Below, piece by piece: positions 40,589 to 64,000 of a DNA stretch of 64,000 nucleotides (positions are counted from its first letter, which is position 1; each line of letters starts with the position of its first letter). The position numbers were made by a program, and so were the translations under genes. This DNA is from Halocafeteria seosinensis (taxonomy: Eukaryota): NCBI GenBank assembly GCA_001687465.1, contig LVLI01000055.1, positions 1-64,000 of the forward strand, given 5' to 3'. Below the pieces are notes generated by a model. The model did no database searches. It was given only the letters and a program-made list of their open reading frames with translations, and was not told the origin of the DNA.

Positions 40589-41839
40589 ATGTTTTTAAAG
40601 CATTTGCCAGAACTCTTTCGAGGGGCTGTCTTCGTCCTCTCTACGGCCTCCATGCTTCTCTTGATTCGATTGATCGGGGAAGTCTTTGGAGATCATATTT
40701 TCTTCTTCTTGCCATGGATGTTTCTGCTTCAGACGATCTGCTTGCTCCTATTATTCACCTTCAGAAACTTGAGAAGCAAGGTTGAACTGGATCCGATTCT
40801 CGATCATGCACCTTGGAAGAGCCGAGTGATCCTGATAATGTCTGCTTCGCTGACACTGAATGCGGCGGGGGTCTTCACAACATCAAAGTACATATCTGGA
40901 CCTCTGCAAACGATTCTGGGCATGTCTCCTCTTATTTTCGCTCCGCTCTTTGACTATCTGTTCTTAAAAGCCCAAATTACATGGAAGCAGATGTCAGGAG
41001 TTCTTATCTGCTTGGCAGGTGTGACAGTGTCGCTGGTAACTCGCGGTCTGGATGGGAAGGAGAGTACCAATGTCCTGGCAGTCGTAATCCAGATATTAGC
41101 CTTGGCTATCATGCCAGGGCTCAGCATACTCAAAGAGGTATGGTTCGTTCCACGGCCGCAGTGGCATCGAGCTTCTGGGAGGGCACCAAATATCGAATGG
41201 AACGTGCTGTTTTACTGTTTCTTTCAAATACCGTGGCACTTCTCGTTCCTCGTTTTCTACGCAAGTGTTGGGATGCCGAAATTCGGAGATATCGGATCCA
41301 ATTTCCACAGTGGTGCCAAATGCTTTTTCGAAAGGACAGGAGGTGCCTCTAGTGAAAACTGTTCGGACGTTTGGTGGGTTATAACCGTTCTCGGAGTGGT
41401 CACAGTGGTTCAAATCACCTCCTCGTTTTATGTTGCAAAGGAGGACAGCGGCGCGTACAGTATTGTTTTGCAGTCTGCTGCCCCATTCTTAGCTGACCTC
41501 GTATTTGGCAGCAAAAAGATTATGGGACAATATGAAGAAAACGTCAGTCCCTGGATTTGGCTGTCCTTGGGACTCACAGTTATTGGATGTGGAATCTACC
41601 GATGGGGAAGCACCGATCCACTAGAGAAAGTAAATCAGGACCCTACTTGGTTTCACAAATTTGTGTTGGGCGCTCCCGACTCATCACTCAAATCAGCACC
41701 TTTGGTGAAGCGCGACCACCTTGCAAGTGAACATAGTAGTATTAATCCCCCGAATGACAACATGGAGAACGAGCGGGATCCCGAAGATGGCGATTGCAAT
41801 CCTTTGCTCTCAGTTTCAGGATACAAAGAGGAATCATGA
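40589..41839 (+). CDS. Drug/metabolite transporter superfamily protein, CRT/CLT-like, intronless
   Basis: About 10 TM helices. YISGPLQTIL..FDYLFLKAQIT..QMSGVLICLAGV (DMT), plus a Cys-pair loop GAKCFF..SENCSD as in CRT-like proteins. Confidence 0.7.
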   Translation: MFLKHLPELFRGAVFVLSTASMLLLIRLIGEVFGDHIFFFLPWMFLLQTICLLLLFTFRNLRSKVELDPILDHAPWKSRVILIMSASLTLNAAGVFTTSKYISGPLQTILGMSPLIFAPLFDYLFLKAQITWKQMSGVLICLAGVTVSLVTRGLDGKESTNVLAVVIQILALAIMPGLSILKEVWFVPRPQWHRASGRAPNIEWNVLFYCFFQIPWHFSFLVFYASVGMPKFGDIGSNFHSGAKCFFERTGGASSENCSDVWWVITVLGVVTVVQITSSFYVAKEDSGAYSIVLQSAAPFLADLVFGSKKIMGQYEENVSPWIWLSLGLTVIGCGIYRWGSTDPLEKVNQDPTWFHKFVLGAPDSSLKSAPLVKRDHLASEHSSINPPNDNMENERDPEDGDCNPLLSVSGYKEES

Positions 41840-44152: not shown

Positions 44153-45018
44153 ATTTAGTGGTCCTGTATGCCTTGCGAAAAAAGGCAAATTTTTTATGTG
44201 TGGCAGCAGCATAGTTCCAGAAGAATGCGAAAGCAAGTAACCTATCAAAACATTCACGTTACAGAAACAATGTCTGAGCCGCCACTATTTCTCCGGGTAG
44301 GAGCAATACAAACAGACGCCACCACCCATGAACATGGATGCAGGCCCACGCGGATATCCAGTGACTTGTTATCTCCCCTTGATTCCCTCATCAAACTTGC
44401 AAGTAGACAAGTTTACCTTACCGGCTCTGGATATGCTGTTCAGCAACCACTTCTTATCCGGAGTGATATACAACCTGCTGCACGTTGCGACGTTGCGAGC
44501 CTCACTTCCTTGAGTTCAAATGGTATTTTTACAATTTTATCGGGACCCTCCCTGCCTTGCTGCTATTGCTAGAACCACTCTTTCACCTCCTCTATTATCC
44601 TTGTTGTTCACGACTCTCGATGCCAGTACAGCCAGGTAGCCTGCAATTCTAAACTTTCTAAAGTACTTGTACAGAGGAGTTATCTTCCTGCGGAAAAAGG
44701 GAGTATAAGACCTGCGCCACTCTGCAATACAATGGCTTGGTTCCGTAATCAATGAGTGTTGGTGACCGCTGGCTGTAAGGAAATGTTTCAAATGATTCCA
44801 CATGGGATCTTCACGATTGCTGCTACTGTTTGAAAACAGTGAGCACAACAGTTTCGATTCGTTTTGGTTTGTTGGTGTCCAAAGCATGTTTGTTGTTGAA
44901 GATCCATGTAATAGTGGCAAGAAAAAAGAAGAGGACTACCTTTTTTTTCTTTCTCTTTTCGTTACTGTATTTCCCCCAAGATTAGTGTAGAAGTCATCCA
45001 AGGATACCCTCCCAAACT

Positions 45019-46971
45019 ATGAGTACTCCCGATAAGAACACTTCCAATGGCGCTGGTGCCGGGGACGGTGGGGTGAATGAAAGTGGTGCACCACCTTCTA
45101 CTTCATTATCTCCTACCACAGGAGGAGCTGGAGCTGGTGTAGCTTCTGGCGGCAACGATGAGGAAGCTGCCGCTGCCACCAAGTTCGTCGATGAAGCCGG
45201 AAATTATTTGAGCGAGTTTAATTTCCGGACTTTAATGGAATGGCTGACGGCAGAGGCTCTCTTTGAGATGCCGGAGGACCCATTGAGCTTCATATGTGCC
45301 GTAACAAAGGACCGCTTGAGGCAGAGAACGCAGCCGGGGTATCGGGCCTCCGATGCTGACGATTATCTCCATGATTGCTATGATCTCCAGACTTCAGATT
45401 CGAAGAGGAATGAGAAAAATGCTCAATTGAGGTCTCTGCAAAAGGAAATGCTCCAAGGAACGGATACCAAAGAGCAACAGCCAGTTGCAAGTGACGAGCA
45501 AACCACCCAACGGCTGCATCTGCTGCAGAGCCTTATTCAAGCCTCCCGGGCCATTGCCACCGAATTGGACCCCATGGATGCTACCAAGAATATCATTAGT
45601 GAATGTACTCGACTGTTGGAGGCCGATCGTGCAACGCTATTCAAGCTGGATGAACCCAAGGAGGAACTGGTGCTCATGGTGGCGGAAGGTGCCAAGAGCA
45701 TTCGCGTCCCCCTAGGACAGGGGATCGCCGGTACTGTTGCCTCCACCGGCAAGACAGAGAACATTGTCGATGCGTACCAGGACAGCCGCTTTGACTCGTC
45801 GAACGACCAGAAGACAGGCTATACAACGAAAAACATCTTGGCGGCTCCCGTTAGAGATGCAGGAGGCCGCACCGTGGGCGTGGTACAAGCTATAAACTGC
45901 ATGAGAGAGGGATCAACGGGCTTTTCCAAGACCGACGAGGAAGGTACGCTAAAGAATATGTAATCATTTGTTTTGATTCTTCCCGTTTTGCTCATGGGTT
46001 CCGAATGTTCTATACAGTCATTGACATTCTGGCGGCCCAAGCTGGGATTGCTCTTCGAAACGCTGACTTGTTTCAAGAGACAAGGCGAAGCCAAAACAAG
46101 GTTCGTCAAATGAAGAAGACGACCCGATACATCGAGAGTCAATTTGTCACTTTAAGCGTCTTGTGCTATACTTGTGGGATCAGGTTCGGGCGATGGTGGA
46201 AGTTATCAAGAGCATTAATTCTGACTTGGGCATCAACAGCTTGATGTTTACGATTGGTCAGAAGACTCCTGCGCTAGTGGATGCAGGTACGATTTTCTCT
46301 TTTCCAGTAAACGTTGACCGTTTTTTCTTTAGGATACGCGATGAGTTGCAGAGAGGTGCACCTTCTACTTGGCCAAGCATTCTGCAAGAGAGCTATGGGC
46401 TGTCCAAGGTGACATCAATTTTAAGATTTCCATTGACCAAGGAATTGCTGGACTAGTTGTGACCGAAAGAAATGGTATGGATATACACTACCAGATGCCC
46501 CGGTCTCTTCTATGTAACTTCTGTTACTAATCACTGATTATTTTGCTTGCAGTCTTGAATATTGTGGATGCTTACGAACATCCCCGCTTTAATCCCGAGA
46601 ACGACAAATCCACAGGGTATAGGACACGCCAAATGCTTTGTGTCCCGTTGTTTGGCTCTGCCAGTAATAGTGATAGCGGGGAGTCAGAAGTTATTGCTGT
46701 ATTGCAATTGATCAACAAAGTAGGTACCACGGAGTCCTTTAGCAAGGAAGATGAGGAGTTGGTGACATTATTCGGAAAGCTAGTGGGCCCCATCATTGAG
46801 AAGAGTCAACTGTTCCAACATCAGAACCGCAAAGGTAATGCCAACGAACTTGGAAGTGATTACACCAAAGGAAGGGGGACTAAGGATTCGTCTGCTGCAC
46901 CTGCCACGATTCAGGAAGGCGAGGAAGAAGATGGAGAAGAAGAAGAAGAGGAAGGTGCTGGACAGTCATAA
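45019..46971 (+). CDS. Tandem-GAF-domain protein with N-terminal RIIa/Dpy-30-like docking segment, multi-exon
   Basis: Two PDE-type GAFs (LLEADRATLF..GIAGTVA..NIVDAYQDSRFDSSNDQKTGYTTKNILAAP..VVQAIN; NIVDAYEHPRFNPENDKSTGYRTRQMLCVP..VLQLINK..FSKEDE). N-terminal LMEWLTAEALFEMPEDPLSFI. Confidence 0.85.
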
Positions 46972-47101: not shown

Positions 47102-48405
47102 TCAATGCCCCGCGCAAAACCACGTAATATTGAGTTCCTTTGCCAGTATCGTTTGCTGTCTTCCTTTGCGAACGCATACGGCACCTTTATAAAACGGTTC
47201 ACCTACTATTTCTTCGTCTGGCGGGTGATCATCTTGATCCATGGCAGATCCGTTCCGAGAAAAGTGGTCTGGCAGGGGATATTCTCCGGGTGCGGGCATG
47301 GTAACCCAGCAGCATTGACATGCGTACGCTACGGCACCCTCTAAACCATGTAGTTCTTTATCAAGCGCATCTCTATTAGGAAAATGATTCCTGAAAAACA
47401 TGTAGTCCACGTTGTCGCTCCACCCACGATTGTAGAATTGCTCGACGTTAAAGTCACAGCTAGTGCATTGCAAAAAGTTGCAGGCGCTGCAATATGAGCA
47501 TTCACGAAAATAAATATGTATGATGCATCACGCTTCTACGACAGGTATATATCATAAAGAAAACCTTACGTTTGCTGACTGACAGGACGTAAACAACCTC
47601 GCTTCATACTGGTCCCACCAAGATACACCGAAGAGCAACTGCAAATCCGTCATGACCCAAACACCCGATACAGATTCCACAAAGTGAACAGACGAAACAC
47701 AGCCAGAACGTACTGTAATGTAGAGGTCATACTGCGCACACTTTTGGAGTCTTTATCGCTATCAGAGTTATCTGTAAACCCACTTCCGTGCATAGCACTT
47801 TGGCTAAATCCCGTTGTACTTGCACGTTCATACGTGGGTGAGCATTCCGTCAGGTTCAAGAGTTCATCCAGTTCATCATGGTGTTTGGAACCGCCGCCAC
47901 ATTCGGAGCGACTGGACGTGAATTTTCGAGGTCGTGAATTGGACACCTTCCCCCCGTAGCCAGTTCCTGATCCCGTGCCTCCAAACGAATTGTGGCTTCC
48001 TTGACGCGTCGGAGACAAATGTCCTATGAAGTCATCCCTCGTGCCGGAGTCATCCCCGTCATCGTCACCCTCTAGGCCAGCTGTAAAATCAGGGTCGAGT
48101 CCCGAAGACCTCCTGGGATGCATGAAATCGCCTCCTGCAGCTCCTCCTCCTCCTTCGTCCCCGTCCGCGTACACTGAGGCCGCAGCTCCTCCTCCTGAGG
48201 GGCCGTCATTCTGAACGCGATGCAGGTGATGCTGGCGCAGACGAGACTTCATCAATTTGTTCGGGTTCCCGTGAGCTTGCTGTGCAGCTGCACCCCCACG
48301 AGCGACGAACCCTGTAGAAGAGGCATGGCGAGTTTGATGATCCGGTGCCGAAGCTGTGCTAAACGCTGAATTCACCTCATTCAAGAGGTCATCCAGGTCA
48401 GACAT
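47102..48405 (-). CDS. CFAP418: CFAP418/C8orf37-like ciliary protein, multi-exon
   Basis: MSDLDDLLNEV N-terminus; QCTSCDFNV..W..VDYMFFRNHFP..GAVAYACQCCW..WFCAGH C-terminus. Confidence 0.85.
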
Positions 48406-48815
48406 TTTGTTTAAATTGGTTTATTTATCGAGTGATAATCTAACTGGTCCAGTGGATGCAGACGTCCTAACAACCCGAAAAGGTTCTCGCGGACAGAAAC
48501 TTGTAGGTTTGTTTAACTAGCTTCCGGTAAACAGTAATTAGGGAACAAAAGTTCAAAATATAACGGGGAGTGTTAATTTCTCAGAGAGTAATGATAACTA
48601 CTCAGGTTACTAAGCAACCATGCTCTTTGTACTATGGATTTCTTCGCAGCTTTAATGCAAAAGGTCCTCGAAACCTTGAAGGTGCAAAATACACCACCGC
48701 ATCCATTCGATTTACAAAAATTGTATAAATCATGAATGCGCAAAAGGAGAAGTAGGAAGAAAAGTCTTCATAACACAAATGAAGCAAGAGCTTATCCTTC
48801 CGCTTACGGCATCAT

Positions 48816-50853
48816 TTAGTTAGAAACACCCAATTTCTTTTCGGCCGCCGTGAGAGCATCCGCGAAAATGTTCATGCAGGTGTCCAGATCATCTTCCTCG
48901 ATAATTAGAGGGGGTAACATTCTCATGACAGCTCCACCACGTCCTCCTTTCTCAAGAATGAGGCCGCGGCGCAGACACTCTTCTTGGAGTTTGTTTGCAA
49001 GAGCAGAGTGAGGCACGGGGTTCCCAAGATGATCATGAGTGGCTGCAACAATACAAGCGAAAAAAATAGTAAGAGATGAGACTACCTGCCCAAACGAATG
49101 AGAAATAACAACGTACTGTTATCCACGATTTCAATTCCTTGGATAAGTCCACGACCGCGGACGTCTCCGATGCTTTTGTGTGTCTTCTGCAACTCCGTCA
49201 TGAATTTGGTCATTTGTTCTCCACGCTTGGCTGAGTAGTCCCATAGCTTATGTTCCTTCATATATTCCAAACTTGCGCTTCCAGTCGCGAATGCCAAACC
49301 ATTGCCACGGAAAGTTCCAGTGTGCGCAGCAGGAGCCCACTCGTTCAAGTGCTCTTGGAAGGCGAACACCGACATTGGAAGGGAACCACCAACCGCCTTG
49401 GACATACAGACGACATCAGGCACGATTCCTCCATGCTCGTACGCAAAGAAGTCACCAGAGCGGCAGAAACCAGCTTGTACTTCATCGACAACAAGCGGGA
49501 TGTTGTGCTCCTTGGTTATTCTTCTAAGTTCCTTCAAGGCGTAGGCACTCATTGGCTGCACTCCGCCTTCACCTTGGATGGCTTCCATTACGACACACGC
49601 TGGTTTAGGGATACCAGATTCATCGTCTGTTAGACAAGTTTCGATGTACCGCATCACAGCCTTCTCTCCTTCTTCAGCGTCCATTCCGAATCTGCATGAT
49701 AGATGAAAACTCGTCGTTGAAAGATGTACAGCTCGTGGTTTCAAAAAAACGCTAACATACGGCTGTCTGTAAGGATAGGGGTAGGGGAAGAAGTGAACAT
49801 CAGTCATAAGACCTTGTACAGCATTCTTGGCACCGAGATTGCCCATCATTGCCAAGGGAGCTTGTCCGTGACCGTGATATCCTCCATGGAACGAAATCAC
49901 TGAGCGGCGTCCTGTGGCAATTTTGCACATTTTGACAGCGGCATCCAAACAATCAGTTCCAGCGGGAGACGGGAAGTGTAGACGAGTCAATTCCTTGGGA
50001 AGAACACTTGCCAAGTCAGTCATGAATTTATCCTTCCACGGAGTGGCCATGTCAAGATGTTGCAACGGTGCCTTACTGTCCAAGTACTGCATTTTCAACC
50101 GACGAGACGCGAAGGTAATTTTCACCGCAAAATATCCAACGAGTAACAAAGCGAAATACAGTTCACACTTACGCTTCTAATGGCATCATGGAGAACTGGG
50201 TGGTTGTGGCCCAAAGCTAGAGTTCCAGCCACTCCCAAGCAGTCATAGTACTGCTTTCCATCGGTATCTGTGAGGATGATACCTTCGGCTTTCTCAATAG
50301 CAAAGGGGAACTTTCGCACATATCCACGTGCATTCGATTCACGGAGGGCCGAGTTCTGTATGGAATAGAATCGACAAAAGTGACTTCCTGTGGGCGAGAA
50401 AACTACAAAAAAGGCCTGGGTTATTCCGTTCCCCAGAACACCCCTGCCCGCGGAACTGAAGTGAAATTTCAGAACACAAGGGGCGGTTCCATAAGAGCTT
50501 CGGAACAGGTGCTTCAAAATCACTGATTTTGAGCCCTTCATGAGCCACACAGAGCAGAGAACGAAACTAGAGAAAGTGATCTAACGCATGCATACCTTGA
50601 GAATTTCGTTCTGAGAAAGGAAAGGGCACTTGCCGGCATTTCCGTCGACGGGAGACTTTTGCGTCACATGGGGTCCAAAGGCGGATACACCATGCTTTTC
50701 TTCCAATGCGTCCAAGTTCTTGGTCAAGTAGCCGACAGGACCTTTGTTGTTGACTGTGGAAGCAGCTCGACGAGCAAGAGAAGGCCCTTGCTGGCGAGAA
50801 GTGCTCATTAAAGAGCGTGAAACACTACGGGTCGCCATGGAAGCAGCTGCCAT
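48816..50853 (-). CDS. ectB: Diaminobutyrate-2-oxoglutarate transaminase (EctB function; Dat-type class III PLP aminotransferase), 5 exons, mitochondrial-type presequence
   Basis: Introns 50595-50356, 50172-50087, 49760-49692 and 49116-49043 splice in frame. Motifs RESNARGY, GTLALGHNHP, FHGGYHG, EAIQGEGG, VDEVQAGFCRSG, SKAVGG (PLP Lys), HTGTFRGN, DVRGRGL, GLILEKGGR..RMLPPL. Confidence 0.9.
50356..50595 (-). other. Candidate structured RNA element in ectB intron 1 (240 nt)
   Basis: Four internal hairpins plus a closing stem found by eye. Carries the TTTTTGTAGTTTTC motif. Confidence 0.5.
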
Positions 50854-51293
50854 TTTCACTGTTCAAAATTGAACGATTCGCGCAGTAAAACAGACAAGCG
50901 ATTCAAAGCTTGGAATCAGTTGAAGGACAATTTTTTCTTTCGGAGAAGTTGACTTTGTGTCAAACACCTGAACTGGCTCAATAATGGAATCTACGTCACT
51001 AGGCTGTTCCCGCGTTTGTGAAGTTGGAAATGGGGTGGACCGTCCCCCACGGGGCCCCACCGTGGACGCGAAATTGAAATACTCAGCATTGGAGAATTCA
51101 CTCGTTTCCTTTTGTTAAGAGCTAAAAGCTGCAATCAGGAGACAGGGTCGCTGCTCTTTGAACGACATACAGTTGATTGGTAACATGATGTCTCAGTATC
51201 AAAGAAGGCAAACGGAGGATGCTGTAGACAGTACTGAGACGTATTCATTGCTTTGTTGGTGCCCTGTGGAAAACAGCGACTAATATACGTGCA

Positions 51294-51309
51294 TTAATGA
51301 CGTCATTAA
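51294..51309. promoter_or_regulatory. Perfect 16-bp palindrome with CRE core in the divergent ectB/ask promoter
   Basis: TTAATGACGTCATTAA. A G-box palindrome GCCACGTGGC follows at 51358-51367. Confidence 0.5.
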
Positions 51310-51693
51310 CACGCCATATAGGTTGTACTATTGGAGGCTGCATGTCGAGTCATCACGGCCACGTGGCACACCGTCTTCCGCCTTATTTCATTGACTGCTG
51401 CCAGAATGCCCGGAACTATCCATACAGACGATACAAAAATGTACCCGACATGGCTACAACGCTTCTGGTAGATTACAGACAAAAGGACACCACGCAGTTG
51501 CCAATTGCTGACTCGCCCGGACTCCGGACTCCGGAGCCACCTTCACAAGTGAAGTGATTGACGAATCCTCTGACACAAACTCAAATTCTCAGGGATTGTT
51601 GAGGTCCGGATTTTGAACGTTTATCGTATTCACACTGTGTTTTATCGTCCTATATTTGTTGCGTACATATACAGCAACTCTTATAACAGAAAA

Positions 51694-53716
51694 ATGTTGT
51701 CCAGTATTGCCCGTAATACTTTAAAAACCAGCAGATTCCTCTCTGCTCGGCCGTTTTCACAGGCTGCTGCCTCCGATCCCATCCTCCAGTCCACCGACAG
51801 CGCTCAGTATCCTCGCGAGACCCTTGCCAGAAAAGTAATGAAGTTCGGAGGATCTTCTGTTGGTAATGCCGAGGCTTTATATCGCGTTGCTGAGATTCTA
51901 CGCAACGAGAAAGAGGAAGGAAACGAGTAAGTTGAAGGCTCTGAGGTGTTCTCCCAAAAACTACAAAAAGGGAAACCCGGGGGGAACAGGCAAGGTGTTC
52001 CGACTTGTGAGGGATATTTTTTTGAAATACCTCAGCTATAGCCGTCATTTTATAAGGGTTGCAATGGCGATACGAAGCTGGAAGTGCGATGCTACGATGC
52101 AAAAATGACTTGTCTATTCGGTGACGGTGTTTGAATCGCGTCTTAGGGGCTCGGAAAGGGGCAAAGACGATCTGGATACGTCTTAAACCTAGATGCGGAA
52201 GGCCGGTGCAACCTAGGGAGCATATGGTTCTTAGGCCTTTTACAAGTGTTTGATGGCTCTATATTCACGCTATTTACTCGTCTATGTTTGATGTTTTTGT
52301 GTACAGGCTTGTGGCTGTATTGAGTGCCATGTATGGCGTCACTGATCGCCTTGTAAACTCGGTAAAATATGCCGAACGAGGTGAAATGGACCCCGTCGGG
52401 AAGAACAGCGATGAGATCAAACTCTACCATGAGCGCACCATTGACTTAATGCTGGGTGACACCCCTTGGGCATCAAATGCCTGCAAGGAATATCTCCATG
52501 ACACCATGCACGTAAGTAGTAATCCAGTGGAAGTAGAGCGACCGTTAGTGAAGTGAAGTCGGAAAACCGGGGTCAGGTTCAGGGGGAGTTAAAGGGGGAA
52601 AGCATTGAATTGTGTCAGACCCGGAGATGGGGATAGTGTTGTTAACTGACTATTTACCAAGGCAACTTGCACAAGCCATCTAGCAGACATCTAACCTGTT
52701 TTTGAATATTGTTGAACTTGCAGCAATGGTATGACCAAGTGCTCAACAACATTGCCGAGAAACAATCGTTCAATGACTACGACATGGATCGTGTCAGCTC
52801 TATTGGCGAGAGACTGAGCAACTTTGTAATGAGTGCTTACTTGCGCAGCAGAGGAACTGGAAGCCACTTTGTCTCGGCTGACCAGCTAATTGTCACCTGC
52901 GGCACCCACGGTAATGCTGAACCCGATCTTCAAGCCACCAGAGCACGTGTGGCCCAGCATTTGGAACCCTTGTTACAAGACTCCGTCCCATGCGTTACTG
53001 GTTTCTTTGGAGCTGGACCCAATGGCAAGGTTACTACCTTCGGACGTGGTGGATCTGACCTAACCGCTGCCGTTCTGGCCAACACATTACGCGACGTCGG
53101 TGAAATGATTCTCTGGAAAGTGGAATGTGAAAAGAGAGACGATGGGTGGCTGAAGGAATGGAAGCCAGGTTTTACTGGTGTCGTTCATGATGCTGATGTG
53201 GACTATACTATCCCCGAGCTGTCTTATGACGACGCAGCTCAGCTCGCCGCTTTCGGAAAGAAAGTGCTCCACCCGTCTACTGTGTTTCCCGCCATCGAGA
53301 AGGACATTCCCGTTTATGTGAAAAATACAATCGACCCTAATCACCCCGGTACAAAGATCCACAGTGATGTCGACACCGACGTTCAGCCGGTTTCATCGAT
53401 TACGAAAGCTGAGTTCAACTTCTGTGAACAAAAGCACGAGATACAAATGGGTGATTTCGATTGGGACAACTTGGGCGTTGGACCCGATAACGCCGGCGTA
53501 GTCGTGCTCGTTGGAAACGGCGTCTACCGGAGTGTTGAGCTCCGAAAACAAATCTCGGCCGTTCTTGATGACAATAACATCAAGAAACACTTTCCTGTGC
53601 GAGTGAATGGAAGTGAAAATAACTTCTGTGTTGTGGTACCTAAATCGGAGATGAAGACTGCCGTCAAATTGCTACATAAGCATATCATTGGATGGAGTGA
53701 ATCCGACACTGAATAA
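51694..53716 (+). CDS. ask: Aspartokinase, 3 exons, mitochondrial-type presequence
   Basis: Introns 51927-52306 and 52512-52723 splice in frame. Motifs VMKFGGSSV, VAVLSAM.GVTD, SIGERLS, TTFGRGGSDLTA, LAAFGKKVLHP, VKNT, plus an ACT-like C-terminus. Confidence 0.93.
51927..52306 (+). other. Candidate structured RNA element in ask intron 1 (380 nt)
   Basis: Multiple G-U-containing helices, competing pairings, and motifs shared with asd intron 1. Confidence 0.55.
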
Positions 53717-54080
53717 GTGAGGATTGGAATGTGCCATCCTACTTGTACGTTTAATATTGGCTTCTTGGTTTAAAAATTGCCATAAGTGTAAGTTCGATTA
53801 CGAAAAACAATAATTTAAAGGACTCCTCTGGTTTTCTTTTACCGCCCTCAAATATCGAGGGCGAAGGTCGGCACGAATATAATATTCGTAAATGCCGACA
53901 CCCGTGGAACCGATGGCCATTGCTTTGTGATGGTTGTCTAATTTCCACATGAAAATGAAGTACGCTTCTCCCTAATACACTAATTAACGCGCTGTACACT
54001 GATACGTACCCGAAGCCAGTGTATTATTTTTGCTTGCACGAGATCATCTGCGTTTCTATCAAGCACTTCACTAACACCTC

Positions 54081-54953
54081 TCACTTTCCTGTGGCTTTCT
54101 CTTCCAGCTGTCGTACGGCTTCATTGATTTGGTCGTAGTTAAATGGGCCTATGTGGAAATGGTCCTCGGCCTCGTGACCTACTCCATCGGGGAAGTCTTC
54201 TTCCTTGATCCAGGATTCTGTAATTTTCACATCTACTCCAGCCCGACGTCCAACCCCTTGGAAGAGGTTCCGAGAGGCTTCATTAGTTGGTGTGACTGTT
54301 GCTTGGACATGTGTGACCCCTTCAGGACAAAGACGACGCGCAAGATGAGCTATCATCCTGCCTGCAATTCCTCGTCCGCGGGCTTTTTCGCCGACTCCGA
54401 CTTGCCATACAAAAATGGCATGGCGTTCACGTGGGGGTCGGTACCCTTTAATAAAGCCAATAATTTCACCATCGAGTTCAGCCACTGCATATGTACCATC
54501 TTGTCTTGAATGGCCCTTGTATCTCGACGGGGAACCAAGGCAGGAGGAACGCACCTATACATTCATCCTGGAAATGCTTGCAGAAAGCTATATACGCGTA
54601 CGCTGAATTGTTATCCAAAGTACCACTAAAGACGATATCACACCTGCAATAATTACACCCAATTAACTCAGTACAGGCAATGACTGGAACAGGCAGTCAA
54701 GGGAAGCTTACATTCCCTTTGCATCGAGCGCTGTAGGCGCTCGAAATGTCACTCCATCTTCCGATTTGGCATCTATGAATCGTTGTTGCTCATAGTTCCC
54801 GACGGAGGAAGTATTGGAAGCAAAGCACCTCTGTATGGAGTGCACACGAGAACCAAGTATCCCGGAACAGGCTTCCTGGAGGGGTAATATCCCACTTCTC
54901 CGTGTCCATTGCGCTACTGCCTTCTGGAGGCTTTTCCGCGGGAAAGCTCTCAT
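54081..54953 (-). CDS. ectA: Diaminobutyrate acetyltransferase (GNAT), 3 exons, N-terminal presequence
   Basis: Introns 54711-54644 and 54554-54485 give FRAPTALDAKGMCDIVFSGTLDNNSAYAYIAFCKHFQDECIVAE..GFIKGYRPP..IFVWQVGV..RGRGIA..ATVTPTNEASRNLF..HEAE..IGPF, the EctA signature. Confidence 0.93.
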
Positions 54954-55203
54954 AGTCTTTGTGCAGTACCTGGTGTTAACTCAGTCACATGTATAAACCG
55001 AAAACAAGGCAATCCGGCGTTGTATCATTGAAGTGAACTCTGGAGGCAGTGTTCCTAGGTGCATCGCATTCACAAGTACACTGAGGGGGAGAGGGTCTAT
55101 AATAGCCCATTGCCATTAGTATATATCGACAGAATAGGATTGTTAGTTCTACAGATTCCGCACGTGGAAGTGAAGAGAGAAAAAGAAGAATTATTACGCA
55201 AGA

Positions 55204-56024
55204 ATGTCGTTCATAGCAGCATCAGTTGGGCGTCGTGGTGCTCCAGGAATTGTCCGTAGAGCTCTAGGGACTTGGAATGCGCCACAAATGCAGCAAAAGC
55301 GCGGGTTCATCCATCGGACGTTTGAGGATGTCAAGGAGGCAGGAAACCACCACATTGCGGCCTCGGGAACATGGGAGAGCCGAAGATACTTGCTTCGCAA
55401 AGACGGAATGGGCTTCTCCTTCCACCATACAATCCTGTATGAAGGTAAGGTGTTGCATTGGAACCGACTTGTCGATGCTTTTATGACGGATTCTCCGTCC
55501 AGGTACTTCGACCCTGATATGGTATCGCAACCATGTGGAGGCGGTATTTATTACCCAAGGCGAAGGAGAGATCGAACTTGTGGATGAGAACCAAAAGGTA
55601 TGGGACACTGACGCGCTGGATTTGGATCAGCACATTTTGTTTGAGACCATCAATGCGAGTCTACTGTCGTACCACAGGAAGGAGAAGGAGTGGTATATCC
55701 CTTGAAACCTGGAACTCTTTACGGCTTGAACGGCCACGAGCGCCACTACCTAAGAGCTACCAAGGGAGATTTGCACGTAGCATGGTAAGACTGGTATCTG
55801 CATCAAGCTCTAGTCCATTAAATTTTATGATTGTTTTGCGTTCTCCTTCTCTTTCAAACCTATGCAGTGCATTCAATCCCCCTGTTGCGGGATCTGAGGA
55901 CCACAATGATCAAGGTGTATACCCTGTTGTGGATGATGCTGACAACAAAATCTACGATTACAGCGTTGATGATTTGCAAGAACTGATCAAGCCTCCTCAG
56001 GTAATGGCCAATAAGAAGAAATAG
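55204..56024 (+). CDS. ectC: Ectoine synthase (cupin), 4 exons, mitochondrial-type presequence
   Basis: Introns 55445-55502, 55598-55677 and 55785-55867 give WESRRYLLRKDGMGFSFHHTILYEGT..WYRNHVEAV..GEGEIE..PGTLYGLNGHERHYLRA..CAFNPPVAGSEDHNDQGVY. The metal-ligand Glu, Tyr and His are present. Confidence 0.96.
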
Positions 56025-56259
56025 GCATGTCGCCTACTACTAGGTAGCTGGAACTCAAATAAATTCAAGTGAACCACTGTTTTAATACTCTGCAAAGTAA
56101 AGCTGCAGCTGGTCTTGGACCATTCCCATCACATAGCAAAGAGACGAAACCGTCAATGAAACCTATACCATCAGCAAGGGGGAGCCCACCCAGCGGGTAT
56201 TTCAGACTCCGTGGCAGTTCAGTAAACCCAGCAATAGACGACTGAGTTTCTCAAGTGGT

Positions 56260-57468
56260 TTACTTTTGGCACACCTTCTTGTGCCGGTCAAAGTCAGCTT
56301 TCTTACACTTTTTATTGCAGTAGTATGCTTTGCGGCATTTGTTGCAAGCATTCGTTGCCCCAGGACTTTTGCAATGCATGCAATGGCTATTTTCTTCTTC
56401 ATCGTTGTCCGGGCAACAGTCAGAAGTCGTTGCTTCCGTGCTACCACTTTGTGGGCTTCTCATTCCACGCTTTGCCCTGCGAATAAAAGGGAGAATTTGC
56501 GGTACCAATAATGAAGCCACACGCTCTGGCGTCATCGTTCCTGATGAATCCTTGCGAAAAGGATCCGCCCCAGCTTCCAATAGAAACTTGGAAGCTTCGA
56601 AATTGCCAGCCATGAGCGCACTCAATAAAGGCACATCCAGGAAGCGGTTCGGCATATTAGGATCAGCTCCAAATTGGAGTAAGATGCGTGCGAGATCGAG
56701 TCTGGGAATTCTCGTTGCGGCATGATAAAACGCCGTGTAGCCTCCACCGTCCTTCGCATCAACTCGACACCAACCGTTTTGCAGTACTAGCCGTAAGATT
56801 TCCTCGTGCTGTAACGGCTTGAAGTGATCACGAATATAATGCATTCTCTGAGATCCAGATACAATAAGTGACGTTAATGGAGTCCGTACAACCCAGCTAC
56901 GCAGGTGTGCGTGCTTAGGAGCGTCAAAGTTCTCCTTGAAAGTCTGCAGATCCCCTTTGAAGGCAGCAACATGAGCAACACTTGGAAGTTCAGCAAGCGC
57001 TTCTTTTGTATGCATACGTGCCCCTTCTTCACCTTGCACTTTCCTCAAATCAGCAGCAGGACTGCCTGGCATTAAACCTGGAACAAAGGATTGATCTCCA
57101 TTGTCCATTTCGTAAAACTCCTCAAGTGTAGTCCGCAGACTTCTGTCGTCCGGCAGGTTTCGGATTCCTCTTATCAATGCTTCTTCGGCACGCGCGGGGA
57201 TACCCAAAGTATAATAGGCTCGATACTGTCGAATGTAGGCCTTGGGAAAGGTGGGATCGAGAGTCTCTGCCTTGATACCGTCTTCCAGAGCCTCGGACAC
57301 TTGGCCGCTTTTGAACAAAGCCGCCGATCGATTGCCGCGCAGGGTTGCAGAGTTATCCCCCAGTTCGATGGCTTTGTTGTACAATTCGACGGCTTGGGCA
57401 AACTCCCCTTTCAGGAAGCACCGATTGGCTTGTTCCTTTACTTCCGCTGCATCAGCTTCAGTTCCCAT
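56260..57468 (-). CDS. TPR + ankyrin + MYND zinc-finger protein, intronless
   Basis: TPR (KEQANRCFLKGEFAQAVELYNKAI), ankyrin (GYTAFYHAA..LLQFGADPN; LLEAGADP), MYND (CMHC..CNKCRKAYYCNKKCKKADFDRHKKVC). Confidence 0.92.
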   Translation of the reverse strand: MGTEADAAEVKEQANRCFLKGEFAQAVELYNKAIELGDNSATLRGNRSAALFKSGQVSEALEDGIKAETLDPTFPKAYIRQYRAYYTLGIPARAEEALIRGIRNLPDDRSLRTTLEEFYEMDNGDQSFVPGLMPGSPAADLRKVQGEEGARMHTKEALAELPSVAHVAAFKGDLQTFKENFDAPKHAHLRSWVVRTPLTSLIVSGSQRMHYIRDHFKPLQHEEILRLVLQNGWCRVDAKDGGGYTAFYHAATRIPRLDLARILLQFGADPNMPNRFLDVPLLSALMAGNFEASKFLLEAGADPFRKDSSGTMTPERVASLLVPQILPFIRRAKRGMRSPQSGSTEATTSDCCPDNDEEENSHCMHCKSPGATNACNKCRKAYYCNKKCKKADFDRHKKVCQK

Positions 57469-58162
57469 AATGTGTTGACGTTTAAGGTTCTGCCGGCACT
57501 GGCCGTGATGATGTTGGTACCACAGTGTACAAATATACGAAGTAGTAGTTCAAGTAGAATTATGTCGGACTATCATGTCTGACAAACAAACACGTTGTAT
57601 GCGTCCATTGTGCTTGTGTTTTTAAACAATTTGCAATATGAGCCGCTGGTCAAAGCGGTAAGAATGCACTCTTGTGAAGCAAAAGTAAAAGCCCGTAAAT
57701 TAGCGCCGCCGCAGCATAGCGTGCAATGCATGGCAATGCACAGTCTGACAAACCTCTGAGCAGCGCGCGGCATGGCACTTAGTTGCTTTTTCGGCTGCCT
57801 TTACCCTGTCGAGACGGGCCAAACTTTAAACACGTACGACCTCACAGAGCAAGCGTTATGCCATTTCCAGCCATGGTGTTCCCACCAACCACTCGCGTAG
57901 GGCACCTACCCCCCGAACTACGTCCGCGGTCAGCCCAGTGGCAGTGGCACCATGATACTGACCACGAATCGAGGCAATTCCCGTGTTGAAGTGGTGCTTC
58001 ACAAAGCACCGCGACCAAAAAAAGCGCGCGTTAACCGCGATACCCAGCTCATTTGCCTCCCCATTCTCTCCATATCCACTCATCCGAGTCGATTAGGTTA
58101 TAAAAATGGGGAAAGAAATGGGCGAAGTCGAGTAGGGGGGAAAAGGTCTTGAAATCTGAGAG

Positions 58163-61100
58163 ATGGAGCCCTCAACGGCGACGTCCTCCTCCAAGGAGGA
58201 GGAGGATAATGGCCCTCATGCTCCTTCAGAGGAGGACCAAGGACAACATGAAGCAACTGGTGGTGAAGGGAGTAGCAGCGCCACAGGTGGTGAGCAGGAG
58301 GAGGGGAAGGAGGAGGAGGAAGAAGTGGATGCAGGTCGAGAAACGGCGGCCAACTTGCAGCAAGTTAACGCAGAAGCTGCATTTGACTTTTTAGATCAGC
58401 AAGTGGAGAAAGGGGCGATTTCTTCCGAGCAGTACGTTGCCAACCAATCTCTGACACAATGTAGCCTTTCTTTGTTGGGTTGCACTGAATCTTTTATATA
58501 TATATTTTTTTTTTCGTGTGTACCAATGACAGAGCGGAGGAACTACGCAGCCGATTCAAAGAGTTGCAACATACAGTATCCGAAACGGCCGAACAGGAGC
58601 AGAATAATGCTCAAGAGCTAGAGCGCCTTAGACGCGTCACTAGGGAAGAACAAAGAACACTGGACACCACGGTACGCTCGAAGGAACGCCTTACAGATGC
58701 GGTGGAACAACTTGCACAAGAAAAAGACGAGGTCAGATGAACTATGATGGGAAAACGTCTACGTGACACTGTCCTCAACCAATTACTTCCCTAATGCAGG
58801 CTGCTCAAGAACTCGAAGAAGCAGAGAATGAGGATAGCACTTTACACTATGAACATAGCGAGCTCAAACGAAAACAGGAAGAGCTGAAGGGACAAGTGGA
58901 GGCTGTTCGTCAAGCCAACAAGGACTTAGTAGAGCCCGAATTAGAATCATTGATGGAAGAAATCAAACAAGGAAAGGAAGAGCTATCCAAATTAAAGAAC
59001 TGGACAGAAAATGCGGAGAAAGAAGAGAAAGAAAAGCGCTCCAAAGTGGAACAACTCCTTGTCATGAAGGAAGAAGCAGCTGAAAGCCTGAGTATGATGC
59101 GGCAAGAATGGACAAGAGTAAAGAATGAGCCTGAAAGAGTAAAGTAAGTTGTTTACGTGTGGATGTTAAGAATGGGAGCGATTGCGATGCTTGTCGATGC
59201 CCTCCATTTCTCTACAGCAAACAAGCGCAGAGCGTGCAGACTGCTGTCCGGGAAGTCAGTACCGAAGCACAGAAGCTGAACAACAAGATCGCTGATGTTG
59301 ATAATGAACTTTCACGACATATAGACAAGCGCTCTGAGGCAAGTAGGTTGCATTCACAGTTGCAATCATCAATCGACAAACACCGGACAGATGTGGAGGA
59401 GTACCGTGCCAATGTGGCTGAACTAGATAAGAGTATCAAGATCGAAGAGCAGGAACACAAAGATCTAACTGAAAGGAAAATGACATTGCAAGCGGAGCTC
59501 AAGCACGCCGCGAACAGTTTACGAGATGCTCAATCTTCCTTATCTTCCATGGAGTCTTCGTACGAACGAAGCAAGAAGGAACTGAAGCGCCGGATGGATT
59601 TAGCAAACGCGGAGAAGGCGAAGGTTCCTGCTGCTGAAAATGACGTTGTAGATGCGACACATGCGCTGCGGGCCTTGGAGAGGGAACATGAAAGTATACA
59701 GAACCAACGGGGCAAACTCCGTAAAGATGTGGACGTGTTGGTGCATAAAGTATTGGTTCAAGAAGCTGGCGAAAGCAAGCTTGCGGAAAAGTTGCAGGAA
59801 ACGTTAGATGTTGAAGCATCGCTAGAGCAAGAGAAGACGAATTGGAACAAGGAGGAACAATTGGCGTACAAGCAGATAAGTGCCTTGAAAGCACAGCGAG
59901 ATCTGAAAAATCGCGAACTCTCTAGAACACAGCAGAAGATCAAAAGTAGTGAGGAAGAGCAACTCATGAAAAATTTGCAACTTACAGATCTCACAAAGCA
60001 AGCTAATGAAACTATCAGTAAGCTGAAGAACTACTCAAAACTATACGAAACGGTGAAGAATGAGAGAAACTCTTACGTGAACGCCATACAAGCCTCGTCA
60101 CAGGCATTAGCTGAGATGAAGGAGCGGATTAAAATATTACAGAATGAAGTGGAAATTTTACAAAATGAAAGCATTGCAAAAGATAAAGCGCTGTCGAAGG
60201 AACGGCTCGCTCATGCAGACGCCTCAGTTCAGAGAGATGCATTGCGGTTTGAGACCAACAAATCACACGCTACTTACCGGGAAAAGCAAAGATCTGTTGA
60301 ACAGCAGATCGTGCGGATTGATAGGTTAAACTCTGTTATATCGAACTTGGAGAAGACGATGCTTCAGCTGAAGAAGCAATACGAAAAGGCTGTGGAGGAT
60401 AGGAATCACACCGGCATACAGCTGATAGATAGAAATGATGAACTGTGCATCCTCTATGAAAAGTCGAATATTCATGAGGATACGATGCGTAAAGGAAATG
60501 AATCGTTAGCAACATTGGACAGAGAGATACAAGAGCTTCAAATCAGGGAGAAGGATCTCGAACGGGAGCTTGACGTCGTCCGAGAAAAGTTCCCGAAGAT
60601 GCCACAGTTGGCGGAGAGGGTGCTGTCGTTACAAAAAGAACTTGCTTCTGAACGGAAATTCACAGAGAAACTGTCGTCAGAATTGGAAAACCCTAGCAAC
60701 CACCGTAACTGGCAACCATTGGAAGGATTCGATCCTGATTCCGATAGGTTAAGTGAACAGGTTTCGGCGTTGGAACAACGGCTAAACGAAAAGAGAGAAA
60801 AGCTCCTAGAACGGGAACTGGTTTTGGAAGAGTTAAACTCCTTGAGTGAGAAGCTGAACGATAAAGCTGTAGAAGGCAAAGGTGCCACATCAGAGCGAGT
60901 TGATCAAGTCCATTCCTTGCAAGCAAAATTGCAGAATGTAACCAAAAAGATGATGGCATTGGTTTCAGAGTTATCCATGTACCAGGCTACGAGTATGAAG
61001 CTCGAGGAAGAAAAGACCGAGCGCCAGAAACAAGTCGAAGAAGCCGAAGCTGCGTTACAGCGGGGTGAAGTACCTTCAGAGGAGGCTGTGCAAGCACTGC

Positions 61101-61351
61101 AACGCAAGGAGCGTTATCAAGAGGTACAGCGGTCCCGCAAAGAGCGGTTGAAAGAGTTGGAGAGGCAGAAGGAGATGCCAGCCTACGCAACGCGGACCAC
61201 CGCGGAGCAGCGCCCGAATGCGTACGTGCCTGAAGGCGAAGCCATTGCTGTACCGAAACCTTACGGAAAACATGCTCCATTCAAGCCCCAGAAGCCCGGT
61301 GCCACTATGCGAAACATTCGAAAGCCACAACAGAAAGAAATTGAAGTTTAA
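58163..61351 (+). CDS. CCDC146: CCDC146/MBO2-like flagellar coiled-coil protein, multi-exon
   Basis: Long coiled coil with GIQLIDRNDELCILYEKSN, KMMALVSELSMYQA and C-terminal RTTAEQRPNAYVP..PKPYGKHAPFKP. Confidence 0.85.
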
Positions 61352-61529
61352 TCTGGCCTTGGTCTTGTTTTAGTTATGCGCCGCACACTGAAGGCAAACA
61401 ATCGAACAGCAGTGGATCGCTGATGAGCTACACACATGGCTCAAAACCAAGCAATATGTGCATTGGAAATAACTCCAACGAATGTGTCTGTAATGCCCAT
61501 GCCACAGGAAAATTCGGTGTTGGCTTAGG

Positions 61530-62578
61530 CTAAGGATTTACCTCTTCTGCAGCTGTTCCCACAAGTTCCCCCGACGTTGTGCAGTCGCCCGAGCCCACTG
61601 CACACGGAACACATACAGTCAGTACTAGTAGATTCACCAAATAATACCTACGAATACGTACTTCCCCAGCTACCTGTTCAATGAGTTTGGGATCCACCCC
61701 TTCGGTATTCCATTGATTCAATGAACCTAACGCGAAGGAATGCCATTGCTCATAGTCAACGAAATTTTGCCTTTTTTCTTGCGCCTCCTTGCTTGGTGTT
61801 TCAGGAGGCTCATGAAAGCTACACTCGGAAAGATCATAAGTATGGTTCTCATGAGAGACTTCACTGCTGCGGTCAGTTATACGACTCGGTTGTTCTTGCG
61901 TATGGAGCGGTTTCTGCTCGTCAACTGCTCCCGATAAACATAGATTGAAAGCGCGACTCCACAAGTCGACAGAGCGTTGTCCGGGGCACTGCAGATAGCA
62001 AACGCCAACTTTGGGGTCGTACTGCTGGGCACCAAACCCATTATGAGGAGACGTACCTGTAAGATGACCGCACCCATGCGGCATCCCAAAATAAACATAC
62101 GATATTCGCGTTCTTCCAAAAGTGTCTCAATGCTTTGACAGCGGATTAAGCCTTTTGACGAAAGTCCAGACGATAAAAACTCCAGAGCCGCTTCGTCACT
62201 GTACTCAATGTTGTCCTCATCTTGGTCGTCATCATTTTGAGTGGCGGACGATTCTACCATCGTGGAAGCGGGACCCCATCGAAATGTATCTCTTGTCAAA
62301 ATACACCACGTTTTCATCCACTGTCGAGGATTTTCGTTTTGAATAGCCTCCTGTGCAGCTTCCACGGGCGCTTCGTACGTATGGCGTCCCCGGAGCCGTA
62401 AATACCCTTCCAAGAGTTTCGGCCCCCCTCCATCCGTCATCCCTGCGGCTGCCATCGATGCTGTGGTAGAGGTCTGTGGCGTCTGCTGACTGGAAAAATT
62501 CGACCAAACATCCCGATTACGCTCGGAAACTACATGAGAGGCAGCCGGAGTGCCTGGGATCTGGTTCATCATGCTCAT
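61530..62578 (-). CDS. PH-domain-like protein, multi-exon
   Basis: LLEGYLRLRG..QWMKTWCILT..GLIRCQSIE..MFILG..WSRAF. Boundaries are approximate. Confidence 0.6.
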
Positions 62579-62879
62579 GGAGCTGGCATGGAAGCTACCT
62601 GCTGGTATGCCGTCGCACTCATTCCTTCAACCATCACACATAATACACACACGAACGAGTGTAATGGCACGCTGATTTCGCTTCCTTCATAATTCAATGA
62701 ACGAACTTCAACGACTCCCGGCTTCAACTTCACGAAGGTCGCCATTCATTTTCGGTATACACAAGAGTGAATTTCAGGATTTGTCATGCTTGGACAAGGT
62801 AGAATACATCCGTCATCATAAACGATCAATTTTTCTTCGGTCGAATTTTGTGCTTCATCATTGCAAGAAGCGAACAAAC

Positions 62880-64000
62880 ATGCTGGGTAGAAACATGAAT
62901 CAATTCCGTAAAGCAGCTGCTCCTTTTACAAAAAGAGCTGCTCCATTGACTCAGACTGCTGGGACTGGAGTGCGCCTGTTTACCAGCTCGTCACCGCTGA
63001 TGAAGGCTGACTTTAAGAGTGGATCTAGCAAACCCAATGTGGCAATTGCTGGCGCGACAGGCGCTGTCGGCCAGGAATTCCTGCGTATTCTAGAGCAACG
63101 CAACTTTCCCATGAACGATGTAAGTATCCAATCCTGCTCTGCATACTTTTTTGTACTGCTATACCGTGAGGGTTGCATGGGAAAGGCTCCCGAAATGGCG
63201 TGGGAGCGCCTCGAGAACAGCCTGAAGTGGGATATTCCTGTGGTGTCTCTGTTCACAGGGCCACCACAGGGGTCCTTACCCTTTTTGTTGTTTTCCCCAA
63301 GGGGACGTTCTAGGGAGCTAGTTTGCCCTGTTCCGTCGGCGGGATTTGAGTGTGAAGTGTGAAGCTGAACCCGAAGCACGGGCTAGCTTCGCCGTCACCA
63401 CCGGCGGAGTCATGCCGTATTTTTTACCTTGAGAATTGAACAAGTTATTTGATTCATTTCCCTGTTTCCTTCGCAGCTCAAATTACTCGCCAGTTCCCGC
63501 AGTAAAGGCAAAAAGATGGAGTATGCCGGCAACGAAATCACGATCGAGGAACTGACGGAAGATAGCTTCAAAGATGTAGATATCGCCTTGTTCAGTTGTG
63601 GCGGGAGCCAAAGCAAAAAGTAAGCGTCATAACATCCTTTAAACCGTCACATACGCTTCTATCATTGTTTGCTCGCCTTTATTGGGAACGCAGATTTGCT
63701 TCTCCAGCTGTAAAGGATGGCTGCGTGGTTGTAGACAACAGCAGCGCCTTCAGAATGGACCCCAACACACCTCTGGTGGTTCCAGAAGTGAATCCATCTG
63801 CTGTAAAGGCACATAAGGGTGTGATAGCCAACCCTAACTGCTCTACCATTATCATGGTCGTGCCTATGTGGCCGCTTCACCAAGCTGCTGGTATCCAGCG
63901 GGCGGTTATATCCACCTACCAAGCTGCTTCCGGATCAGGTGATCAAGCCATGCGCGAGCTTGAGGAACAGGCGCGACAATGGGCCCGTGGAGAAACTGAC
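62880..64000 (+). CDS. asd: Aspartate-semialdehyde dehydrogenase, mitochondrial-type presequence, truncated by window end
   Basis: Introns 63120-63476 and 63620-63693. Motifs VAIAGATGAVGQE, LLASSRSKGK, DIALFS, VVDNSSAFRM..PLVVPEVN, IANPNCSTI (catalytic Cys), STYQAASGSG. Confidence 0.96.
63120..63476 (+). other. Candidate structured RNA element in asd intron 1 (357 nt)
   Basis: Multiple helices with motifs shared with the ask and ectB introns. Confidence 0.55.

Follow-up and report, generated by a model that had tools for sequence, protein, structure and literature searches.

Ectoine, a compatible solute that protects cells against salt, had been regarded as a prokaryotic product until a report on the halophilic bicosoecid flagellate Halocafeteria seosinensis provided the first evidence of intron-bearing, clustered ectoine genes in eukaryotes (Harding et al. 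2016, Genome Biol Evol; PMC4987115). Passages of that report assign ectB, ask, ectA and ectC to one contig, "between nucleotides 48000 and 56100", with the gene for aspartate-semialdehyde dehydrogenase (ASADH) three genes downstream of ectC and ectD on another contig; they also describe spliceosomal introns in all of these genes, mitochondrial signals predicted on EctABCD, Ask and ASADH, four cluster mRNAs and increased expression under high salt for ectB, ask and ectD, and they list ect homologues in several protists. In parts of two later papers (PMC5796728, Czech and Bremer 2018; PMC5924519, Czech et al. 2018), the locus is discussed as genes stolen from prey. Here, we analyzed a stretch of 64,000 nucleotides (nt) of H. 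seosinensis DNA (contig LVLI01000055.1, positions 1 to 64,000; hereafter the window), for which an original prediction made from the sequence alone had proposed a complete ectoine pathway. We consider it highly probable that the nuclear genes clustered at 48816-64000 are transcribed and spliced, that the predicted activities of their products lead from aspartate to ectoine, probably in mitochondria, and that this cluster matches the published one of H. seosinensis.

The locus and the published cluster share the gene set, gene order, linkage, introns and targeting-like N-terminal extensions as well as the position of ASADH three genes downstream and of ectD elsewhere. The published range of 48000-56100 compares with 48816-56024 in the window, the content of guanine plus cytosine (GC) is near 47% in both, and we found no difference in layout from what the passages of PMC4987115 describe; we regard the locus as the published one or as its equivalent in a very close relative. 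The precedent in Halocafeteria to which the original prediction pointed had indeed been published in 2016 (PMC4987115), and the comparison with a published protist ect locus, which it proposed as a check, returned the same order, introns, ASADH position and coordinate range. As its layout was published in 2016, the cluster is already known; the assignment of its transaminase to the Dat type goes beyond the passages of PMC4987115. Our analyses add independently derived boundaries for all exons and compare 11 of the 13 introns directly with transcripts; what is still of interest is where the transaminase and the aspartokinase came from, together with proof of the metabolite.

Gene models were built by joining stop-to-stop frames between 48.8 and 64.0 kb at GT..AG sites, and families were assigned using Pfam and NCBIfam. 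The ectB-like gene (48816..50853, minus strand) consists of five exons (50853-50596, 50355-50173, 50086-49761, 49691-49117 and 49042-48816) separated by introns of 240, 86, 69 and 74 nt, and its product of 522 amino acids (aa) has an N-terminal extension of ~86 aa. Head-to-head with it lies ask (51694..53716, plus strand), in which three exons (51694-51926, 52307-52511 and 52724-53716; introns of 380 and 212 nt) encode a monofunctional aspartate kinase of 476 aa whose N-terminus is presequence-like and whose regulatory region is shortened. The second pair is formed by ectA (54081..54953, minus strand; exons 54953-54712, 54643-54555 and 54484-54081; introns of 68 and 70 nt) for an L-2,4-diaminobutyrate N-gamma-acetyltransferase of 244 aa with an N-terminal extension of ~70 aa, and ectC (55204..56024, plus strand; exons 55204-55444, 55503-55597, 55678-55784 and 55868-56024; introns of 58, 80 and 83 nt) for an ectoine synthase of 199 aa with an extension of ~35 aa. 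The fifth gene, asd (62880..64000, plus strand), encodes an ASADH of the asd_B type with a presequence-like N-terminus; it is partial, as the last of its three exons (62880-63119, 63477-63619 and 63694-64000; introns of 357 and 74 nt) runs off the window. All 13 introns of the five pathway genes have GT..AG ends and restore the reading frame.

In total, ectB to ectC span 7,209 bp (48816-56024) as two head-to-head gene pairs, and asd starts 6,856 bp beyond ectC with three unrelated genes in between. This is the arrangement originally predicted, with ectB(-), ask(+), ectA(-) and ectC(+) within 7.2 kb, asd ~6.9 kb further on and canonical, frame-restoring spliceosomal introns in each gene. The locus thus has the hallmarks of a eukaryotic metabolic gene cluster, i.e. 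linked, non-homologous genes of one pathway, with four genes inside 7.2 kb and the fifth at a distance of 6.9 kb. Between the start codons of ectB and ask lie 840 bp (50854..51693), and between those of ectA and ectC 250 bp (54954..55203). We suggest that each head-to-head pair may share a short bidirectional promoter, which in the ectB-ask region would be accommodated together with the 5' untranslated regions (UTRs). Sequences of 8 to 12 nt shared by the two divergent intergenic regions and the region upstream of asd were not more numerous than in shuffled sequences (for 9-mers, one versus a mean of 1.71).

To compare the gene models with transcripts, contigs of four public runs of one study, coded X1 to X4, were aligned to positions 48700-56100, a region that includes 11 of the 13 introns. 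X1 covers this entire region (7.4 kb) unspliced in a single piece with zero joints. The contigs of X2-X4 lack all 11 introns of ectB, ask, ectA and ectC, with joints that fall exactly on the predicted boundaries; the 380-nt skip in ask is present in X2, X3 and X4, and the 212-nt skip in X2 and X4. Because the introns are retained in the former and skipped in the latter, we infer that X1 represents DNA and X2-X4 transcript assemblies. The third ectB intron (49692-49760) has a length of 69 nt, is in frame and free of stop codons and could, therefore, be read through, yet it is spliced out in X2, X3 and X4. Thus, GT..AG introns are removed from ectB, ask, ectA and ectC as from eukaryotic nuclear genes, and the spliced transcripts anticipated in the original prediction were recovered at 11 of 11 joints. 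For the two asd introns, the assignment is based on their GT..AG ends, the restoration of the frame and pieces that cover the asd profile in order.

Transcript-like contigs also extend between genes. They cover the ectB-ask intergenic region entirely (e.g. X3 record 7, 50596-51927) and bridge the ectA-ectC intergenic region (e.g. X2 record 6, 54710-55442), and they also bridge the tail-to-tail gap between ask and ectA (53109-54141). According to these contigs, the cluster is transcribed wall to wall and neighboring UTRs abut or overlap, although a contig that contains two genes does not show that the two are on a single transcript.

The same alignments revealed sequence variation. The X1 contig differs from the window at 17 of 7,401 positions, at many of which the transcript-like contigs carry either letter, and there are two 10-nt indel variants in the ectB-ask intergenic region, at 51045 and 51491. 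These differences look like two alleles, which fits the diploid genome with 46.8% GC described for H. seosinensis in passages of a preprint (bioRxiv 10.64898/2026.06.25.734631).

The host organism is a bacterivore, the enzymes are of prokaryotic type and concern about contamination has been raised in general terms in passages of PMC5796728; these points would be compatible with a region that represents bacterial contamination or a chimeric assembly. Against this stand the 13 GT..AG introns, 11 of which are removed in the transcript-like contigs, the single DNA-like contig across the whole stretch, the even GC content of the window (0.45-0.51), the intron-split eukaryotic genes that flank the cluster on both sides, and N-terminal extensions that are lacking in the bacterial homologues. 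Given the introns, the unbroken DNA-like contig and the neighboring eukaryotic genes, we reject contamination or chimerism, to which we assign a negligible probability.

The identities of the five products are supported by Pfam, NCBIfam and Protein Data Bank (PDB) matches for all four clustered genes and by profiles for asd, so that the full Ask-Asd-EctB-EctA-EctC route is encoded as proposed. EctC matches Pfam Ectoine_synth (PF06339) on three pieces, with 39.3 and 32.6 bits on two exon-bearing frames (cut-off 27). On NF009806 its pieces score 40.4, 32.0, 29.6 and 22.1 bits; since the rough sum of 124 is just below the cut-off of 128, the subfamily threshold is not clearly reached. The pieces align to the ectoine synthases in PDB entries 5onn and 5bxx, and relative to 5onn a Glu is kept at chain position 57 (HVEAV), a Tyr at 84 and a His at 92 (GTLYGLNGHERHYL). 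We take these three residues to be the metal ligands of EctC. Homology begins near residue 38 of EctC and, therefore, the preceding ~35 residues constitute an extension. EctA, a GNAT protein (Pfam Acetyltransf_1), has 106.6 bits on exon 3 and 21.0 bits on exon 2 against TIGR02406 (ectoine_EctA), and the rough sum of 127.6 exceeds the equivalog cut-off of 120.6; its full-length orthologue P0178, which shares 68% identity with it across 241 aligned positions, reaches 135.6 bits on the same model. EctA also aligns to the EctA of PDB 6sjy with 88.5 bits.

As a side observation on EctC, in the Bacillota genome G001 (L081 and L105; the genome also contains locus L028) a strong EctC match has neither an EctA nor an EctB relative within 1.5 kb; this genome has no transaminase above the EctB cut-off, and a Dat-type transaminase is present. 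By sequence, G001 may be a solitary ectC case of the kind reviewed in passages of PMC5924519.

Ask contains Pfam AA_kinase (PF00696; 66.5 bits, cut-off 24.9) and one ACT_9 match that at 26.4 bits is just below the cut-off of 27; on TIGR00657 the pieces score 162, 26.2 and 15.2 bits, i.e. a rough sum of 203 versus a cut-off of 208.7. In sequence it is nearest Escherichia coli LysC (PDB 2j0w, 103 bits) and other class-I aspartokinases, and an AlphaFold model of exon 3 (pLDDT, the predicted local distance difference test score, of 88.8) has aspartokinases as its top Foldseek matches (E 1e-22). Compared with the two-ACT region of LysC, the regulatory region encoded by exon 3 (52724-53716) is ~50 residues shorter and includes only one recognizable ACT unit, and the kinase domain has a ~12-residue insertion that appears as an alignment gap versus 2j0w. 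The nearest relatives of this Ask list only PF00696, sometimes with PF22468. Judged from the sequence, the reduced ACT region may reflect an altered feedback control. Finally, asd matches NF011456/TIGR01296 (asd_B), with pieces of 149.1, 52.7 and 30.7 bits on NF011456 (cut-off 223) for a gene that is cut by the window end; the PRK14874/asd_B pieces cover the profile in order, and both Pfam Semialdhyde_dh and Semialdhyde_dhC are present.

The transaminase differs from the EctBs of bacterial operons. It matches Pfam Aminotran_3 with 198.7 bits, and its best NCBIfam models are PRK06938 and dat (TIGR00709), on which the largest piece scores 394.6 and 363.9 bits, respectively, versus 248.6 bits on ectoine_ectB. 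With pieces of 363.9, 69.5 and 44.4 bits, the rough sum of 478 on dat is above the cut-off of 401.6, and with pieces of 248.6, 49.5 and 35.1 bits the rough sum of 333 on the EctB equivalog TIGR02407 is below the cut-off of 552.2. The orthologues P0007, P0001 and P0004 behave in the same way, with 331.9, 347.3 and 336.8 bits on TIGR02407 and 478-490 bits on dat; the named orthologues, which are full-length proteins of Cafeteria roenbergensis, Bicosoecida sp. ms1 and Gymnodinium smaydae, all lie above the dat and below the ectoine_ectB threshold. Operon-borne EctBs score 582-706 bits on TIGR02407. The window transaminase aligns to the diaminobutyrate transaminases of PDB 9s1q and 6rl5, and the lysine that binds pyridoxal phosphate is kept in the motif CMSKAVGG, where it is aligned to the K of 9s1q; the residue at that position in 9s1p is A.

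Operon-linked EctBs were collected from 13 loci found by means of the EctB model and from 30 loci found by means of EctC in 401 Pseudomonadota genomes (29 with a transaminase and the thirtieth without); as the two sets are from separate searches, some genomes may occur in both. In all 42 comparisons (13 + 29 loci), the window transaminase is 31-36% identical to the operon-linked EctB. In contrast, it is 43-51% identical (best segment) to the best 80 prokaryotic loci, which are from Bacillaceae, Pasteurellaceae, Pseudomonas, spirochaetes, haloarchaea and others, and 45-52% identical to Dat-type genes of some of the operon-bearing genomes. Transaminases of this Dat/PvdH type (TIGR00709, PRK06938; Acinetobacter, Haemophilus, Pseudomonas and Bacillaceae; 43-52% identity) would catalyze the same reaction. 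Relatives of ectA or ectC are absent within 10 kb of all of the best 80 prokaryotic loci; in true ect operons, both genes are readily picked up by this test. The window transaminase, unlike these prokaryotic genes, is inside an ectoine cluster.

A quick maximum-likelihood tree of 68 proteins, obtained by a quick search with support from the Shimodaira-Hasegawa-like approximate likelihood ratio test (SH-aLRT) only, separates a canonical EctB clade (SH-aLRT 99), which is on a long stem (1.09), from a Dat-type clade (98) that contains the window transaminase. Within the latter, the window protein and 22 database proteins form a clade (99) whose only named members are from two bicosoecids and a dinoflagellate. 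An arrangement in which this eukaryote-like clade joins the canonical EctBs is not rejected by the approximately unbiased (AU) test (log-likelihood difference 9.74, p-AU 0.311). The phylogeny check proposed earlier, run here for the transaminase, consequently gives a mixed result: it places the protein in the Dat-type clade, and the AU test leaves a position with the canonical EctBs acceptable. Judged by its sequence, the "ectB" of the window is a Dat-family diaminobutyrate:2-oxoglutarate transaminase.

Combining these assignments, we suggest a pathway in which (i) Ask would phosphorylate aspartate, (ii) Asd would reduce the Ask product to aspartate semialdehyde, (iii) the Dat-family transaminase ("EctB") would make L-2,4-diaminobutyrate with glutamate as the amino donor, (iv) EctA would acetylate L-2,4-diaminobutyrate with acetyl-CoA, and (v) EctC would cyclize N-gamma-acetyl-diaminobutyrate to ectoine. 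The N-terminal extensions, which precede the start of homology, are likely mitochondrial presequences: the first 35 residues of all five proteins contain 4-6 Arg plus Lys versus 0-2 Asp plus Glu, with the first acidic residue at positions 27-48, and this composition fits such presequences.

The Dat-family assignment of the transaminase also bears on the end product. Bacterial members of this family serve diaminopropane or siderophore routes, and the genes might be expressed and yield another diaminobutyrate-derived product, or only N-gamma-acetyl-diaminobutyrate, in place of ectoine. Solitary EctC-like proteins of uncertain function exist, as discussed in passages of PMC5924519, and the function in H. 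seosinensis is a predicted one. On the other hand, EctA scores at the equivalog level, as does its orthologue P0178, the metal-ligand positions of EctC are kept, the five genes together constitute exactly the ectoine route, and a salt-induced ectD is described elsewhere in the published genome in passages of PMC4987115. Taking these data together, we regard a product other than ectoine as quite improbable.

Several points weigh against the interpretation of the locus as a transcribed pathway for ectoine synthesis in mitochondria. Passages of PMC5796728 and PMC5924519 (Czech and Bremer 2018; Czech et al. 2018) state that proof of ectoine production by H. seosinensis was missing, and the mitochondrial location derives from the composition of the N-termini and the published prediction. 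The transaminase scores below the EctB equivalog threshold. The RNA nature of runs X2-X4 is deduced from the skipping of introns, and the transcript support is for the introns of ectB, ask, ectA and ectC. Moreover, the closest database proteins are 64-90% identical to those of the window, so that the match to the published locus is one of layout, coordinates and GC content and not of sequence. With these points included, we still favor the ectoine pathway.

Compared with bacterial ectABC(-ask) operons (e.g. loci L083-L087, L097-L103 and L187-L216), the locus encodes the same enzymatic steps, and EctA and EctC are clearly homologous. The bacterial operons are transcribed as one polycistron, whereas the window has separate genes in two divergent pairs with introns and N-terminal extensions, and the operons' EctB (31-36% identity) and ask (23-31% identity; often linked, in 1 of 13 and 10 of 30 loci) differ from the Dat-family transaminase and the other-type Ask of the window. 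These likenesses and differences bear on how the cluster originated. According to the view stated in passages of PMC4987115, PMC5796728 and PMC5924519, a pre-formed bacterial ectABC-ask operon was acquired in a single transfer and gained introns, presequences and separate promoters later. The gene content, which is the bacterial ectABC-ask set in tight linkage, and the identities of EctA (31-46%) and EctC (39-57%) to their operon-borne counterparts argue for this scenario, and the AU test is compatible with it. It is less easily reconciled with the transaminase, which is closer to Dat/PvdH-type genes than to any of the 42 operon-linked EctBs, has no ectA or ectC neighbor in its 80 nearest prokaryotic loci and has three named eukaryotic orthologues that pass the dat and fail the ectoine_ectB threshold, or with the low identity of the operon-linked ask genes (1 + 10 loci) to the window Ask. 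We consider a single transfer of the operon possible, at somewhat less than an even chance.

Alternatively, the cluster may be a mosaic assembled in a eukaryotic ancestor, a bicosoecid or an earlier one, in which an operon-type ectA-ectC pair came together with a Dat-family transaminase and a LysC-like aspartokinase whose regulatory domain is reduced, both independently derived, and with a nearby asd, after which the set was kept linked. The transaminase identities and gene neighborhoods that count against the transfer of a whole operon support such a mosaic, as does the position of the window clade within the Dat-type clade and apart from the canonical EctBs. The same holds for Ask, which is nearest LysC/AKIII-type kinases in sequence and fold. 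Kinship with the Ask_Ect enzymes was not evident: the products of the 11 operon-linked ask genes share 23-31% identity with Ask (49-69 bits), versus 29-43% for other prokaryotic kinases. A metagenome scan with an Ask alignment returned, among the matches listed, only distant kinases (29-43% identical), with EctA or EctC in none of 80 loci and an Asd-like neighbor in 13 of 80; it is not informative on eukaryote-like relatives. Passages of PMC4987115 report no supported Ask_Ect clade and an asadh that is not close to bacterial sequences. The linkage of EctB and Ask, and in part EctA, on at least three other public contigs would show that the set has been kept together. Conversely, the AU test does not reject the alternative, the tree comes from a quick search with SH-aLRT support only, the operons sampled are from Pseudomonadota and Bacilli only, and the long stem of the canonical EctBs could alone explain the lower identity. 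We put a mosaic origin forward tentatively, likewise at somewhat less than even odds.

Because the transaminase and ask are unlike the operon-linked genes, there is a hint of a mosaic cluster as opposed to a stolen operon; because the AU test is not decisive, a mosaic origin is a live hypothesis and not a result. The horizontal acquisition originally proposed is plausible for ectA and ectC, and in the case of ectB and ask it is doubtful that a whole operon arrived in a single block, given their identities and the 80 loci without ectA or ectC, with the AU test (p-AU 0.311) leaving room for it. If the transaminase and the aspartokinase did not arrive with ectA and ectC, the locus would exemplify a pathway that was assembled in a protist through clustering, like the metabolic clusters of plants and fungi, and not operon theft.

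Among other protist ect genes, the transaminases of C. roenbergensis, Bicosoecida sp. ms1 and G. smaydae are 58-64% identical to that of the window and form one clade with it. Vexillifera and Azadinium have fused EctA-EctC proteins, a fusion that is absent in the window. Most of the protist genes are known from transcriptomes and, therefore, do not provide information on gene linkage. In database searches, the proteins closest to those of the window share 64% (EctB), 90% (Ask exon 3) and 77% (EctA) identity with them. Relatives of EctB and Ask appear to be co-located on three other public contigs (61121, 114621 and 19304 nt; 30741 nt for other cluster members), as deduced from equal contig size. 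The 61121-nt contig has relatives of EctB (P0018), Ask (P0121) and EctA (P0179) that are 85%, 90% and 74% identical to those of the window, and its EctB fragment starts and ends at the limits of exon 4 in the window. Thus, the cluster and at least the structure of this exon appear to have been retained in a sister lineage.

An ectD product would convert ectoine to hydroxyectoine. The prediction that ectD is not in the window agrees with a Pfam scan of 60 long window frames (17 + 43), in which there was no PhyH/EctD-type match, although short split exons could escape such a scan. Many long frames in the window at 1-48500 have no Pfam match (e.g. 18598-21132, 24038-26146 and 34192-36936).

The three genes between ectC and asd are outside the pathway. 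The first (56260..57549, minus strand) encodes a TPR/ankyrin/zf-MYND protein with Pfam Ank_4, Ank_2, TPR_11 and zf-MYND matches on a 429-aa frame. The second (58160..61351, plus strand, 5' limit approximate) encodes a CFAP58-like coiled-coil (flagellar) protein with a Pfam CFAP58_CC match of 69 bits on a 738-aa frame (59135-61351); it includes same-direction upstream frames from 58160, and its limits are from open frames and not from a gene model. The third (61530..62626, minus strand, limits approximate) consists of overlapping frames (61530-62126 and 61877-62626) without a Pfam match. On the other side of the cluster, the neighboring genes across 1-48500 are intron-split and eukaryotic; by Pfam they include genes for a FAD-binding oxidase (FAD_binding_4; 2-1435, minus strand), an aldehyde dehydrogenase (4674-5468, minus strand), a PP2C (8694-9595, plus strand), a CRT-like transporter (40562-41836, plus strand), a GAF-domain protein (44986-46968, plus strand) and an RMP protein (47105-47527, minus strand). 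The cluster is thus surrounded by ordinary eukaryotic genes, as had been proposed, among them those for the TPR/ankyrin/zf-MYND, CFAP58-like, PP2C and GAF-domain proteins and the CRT-like transporter.

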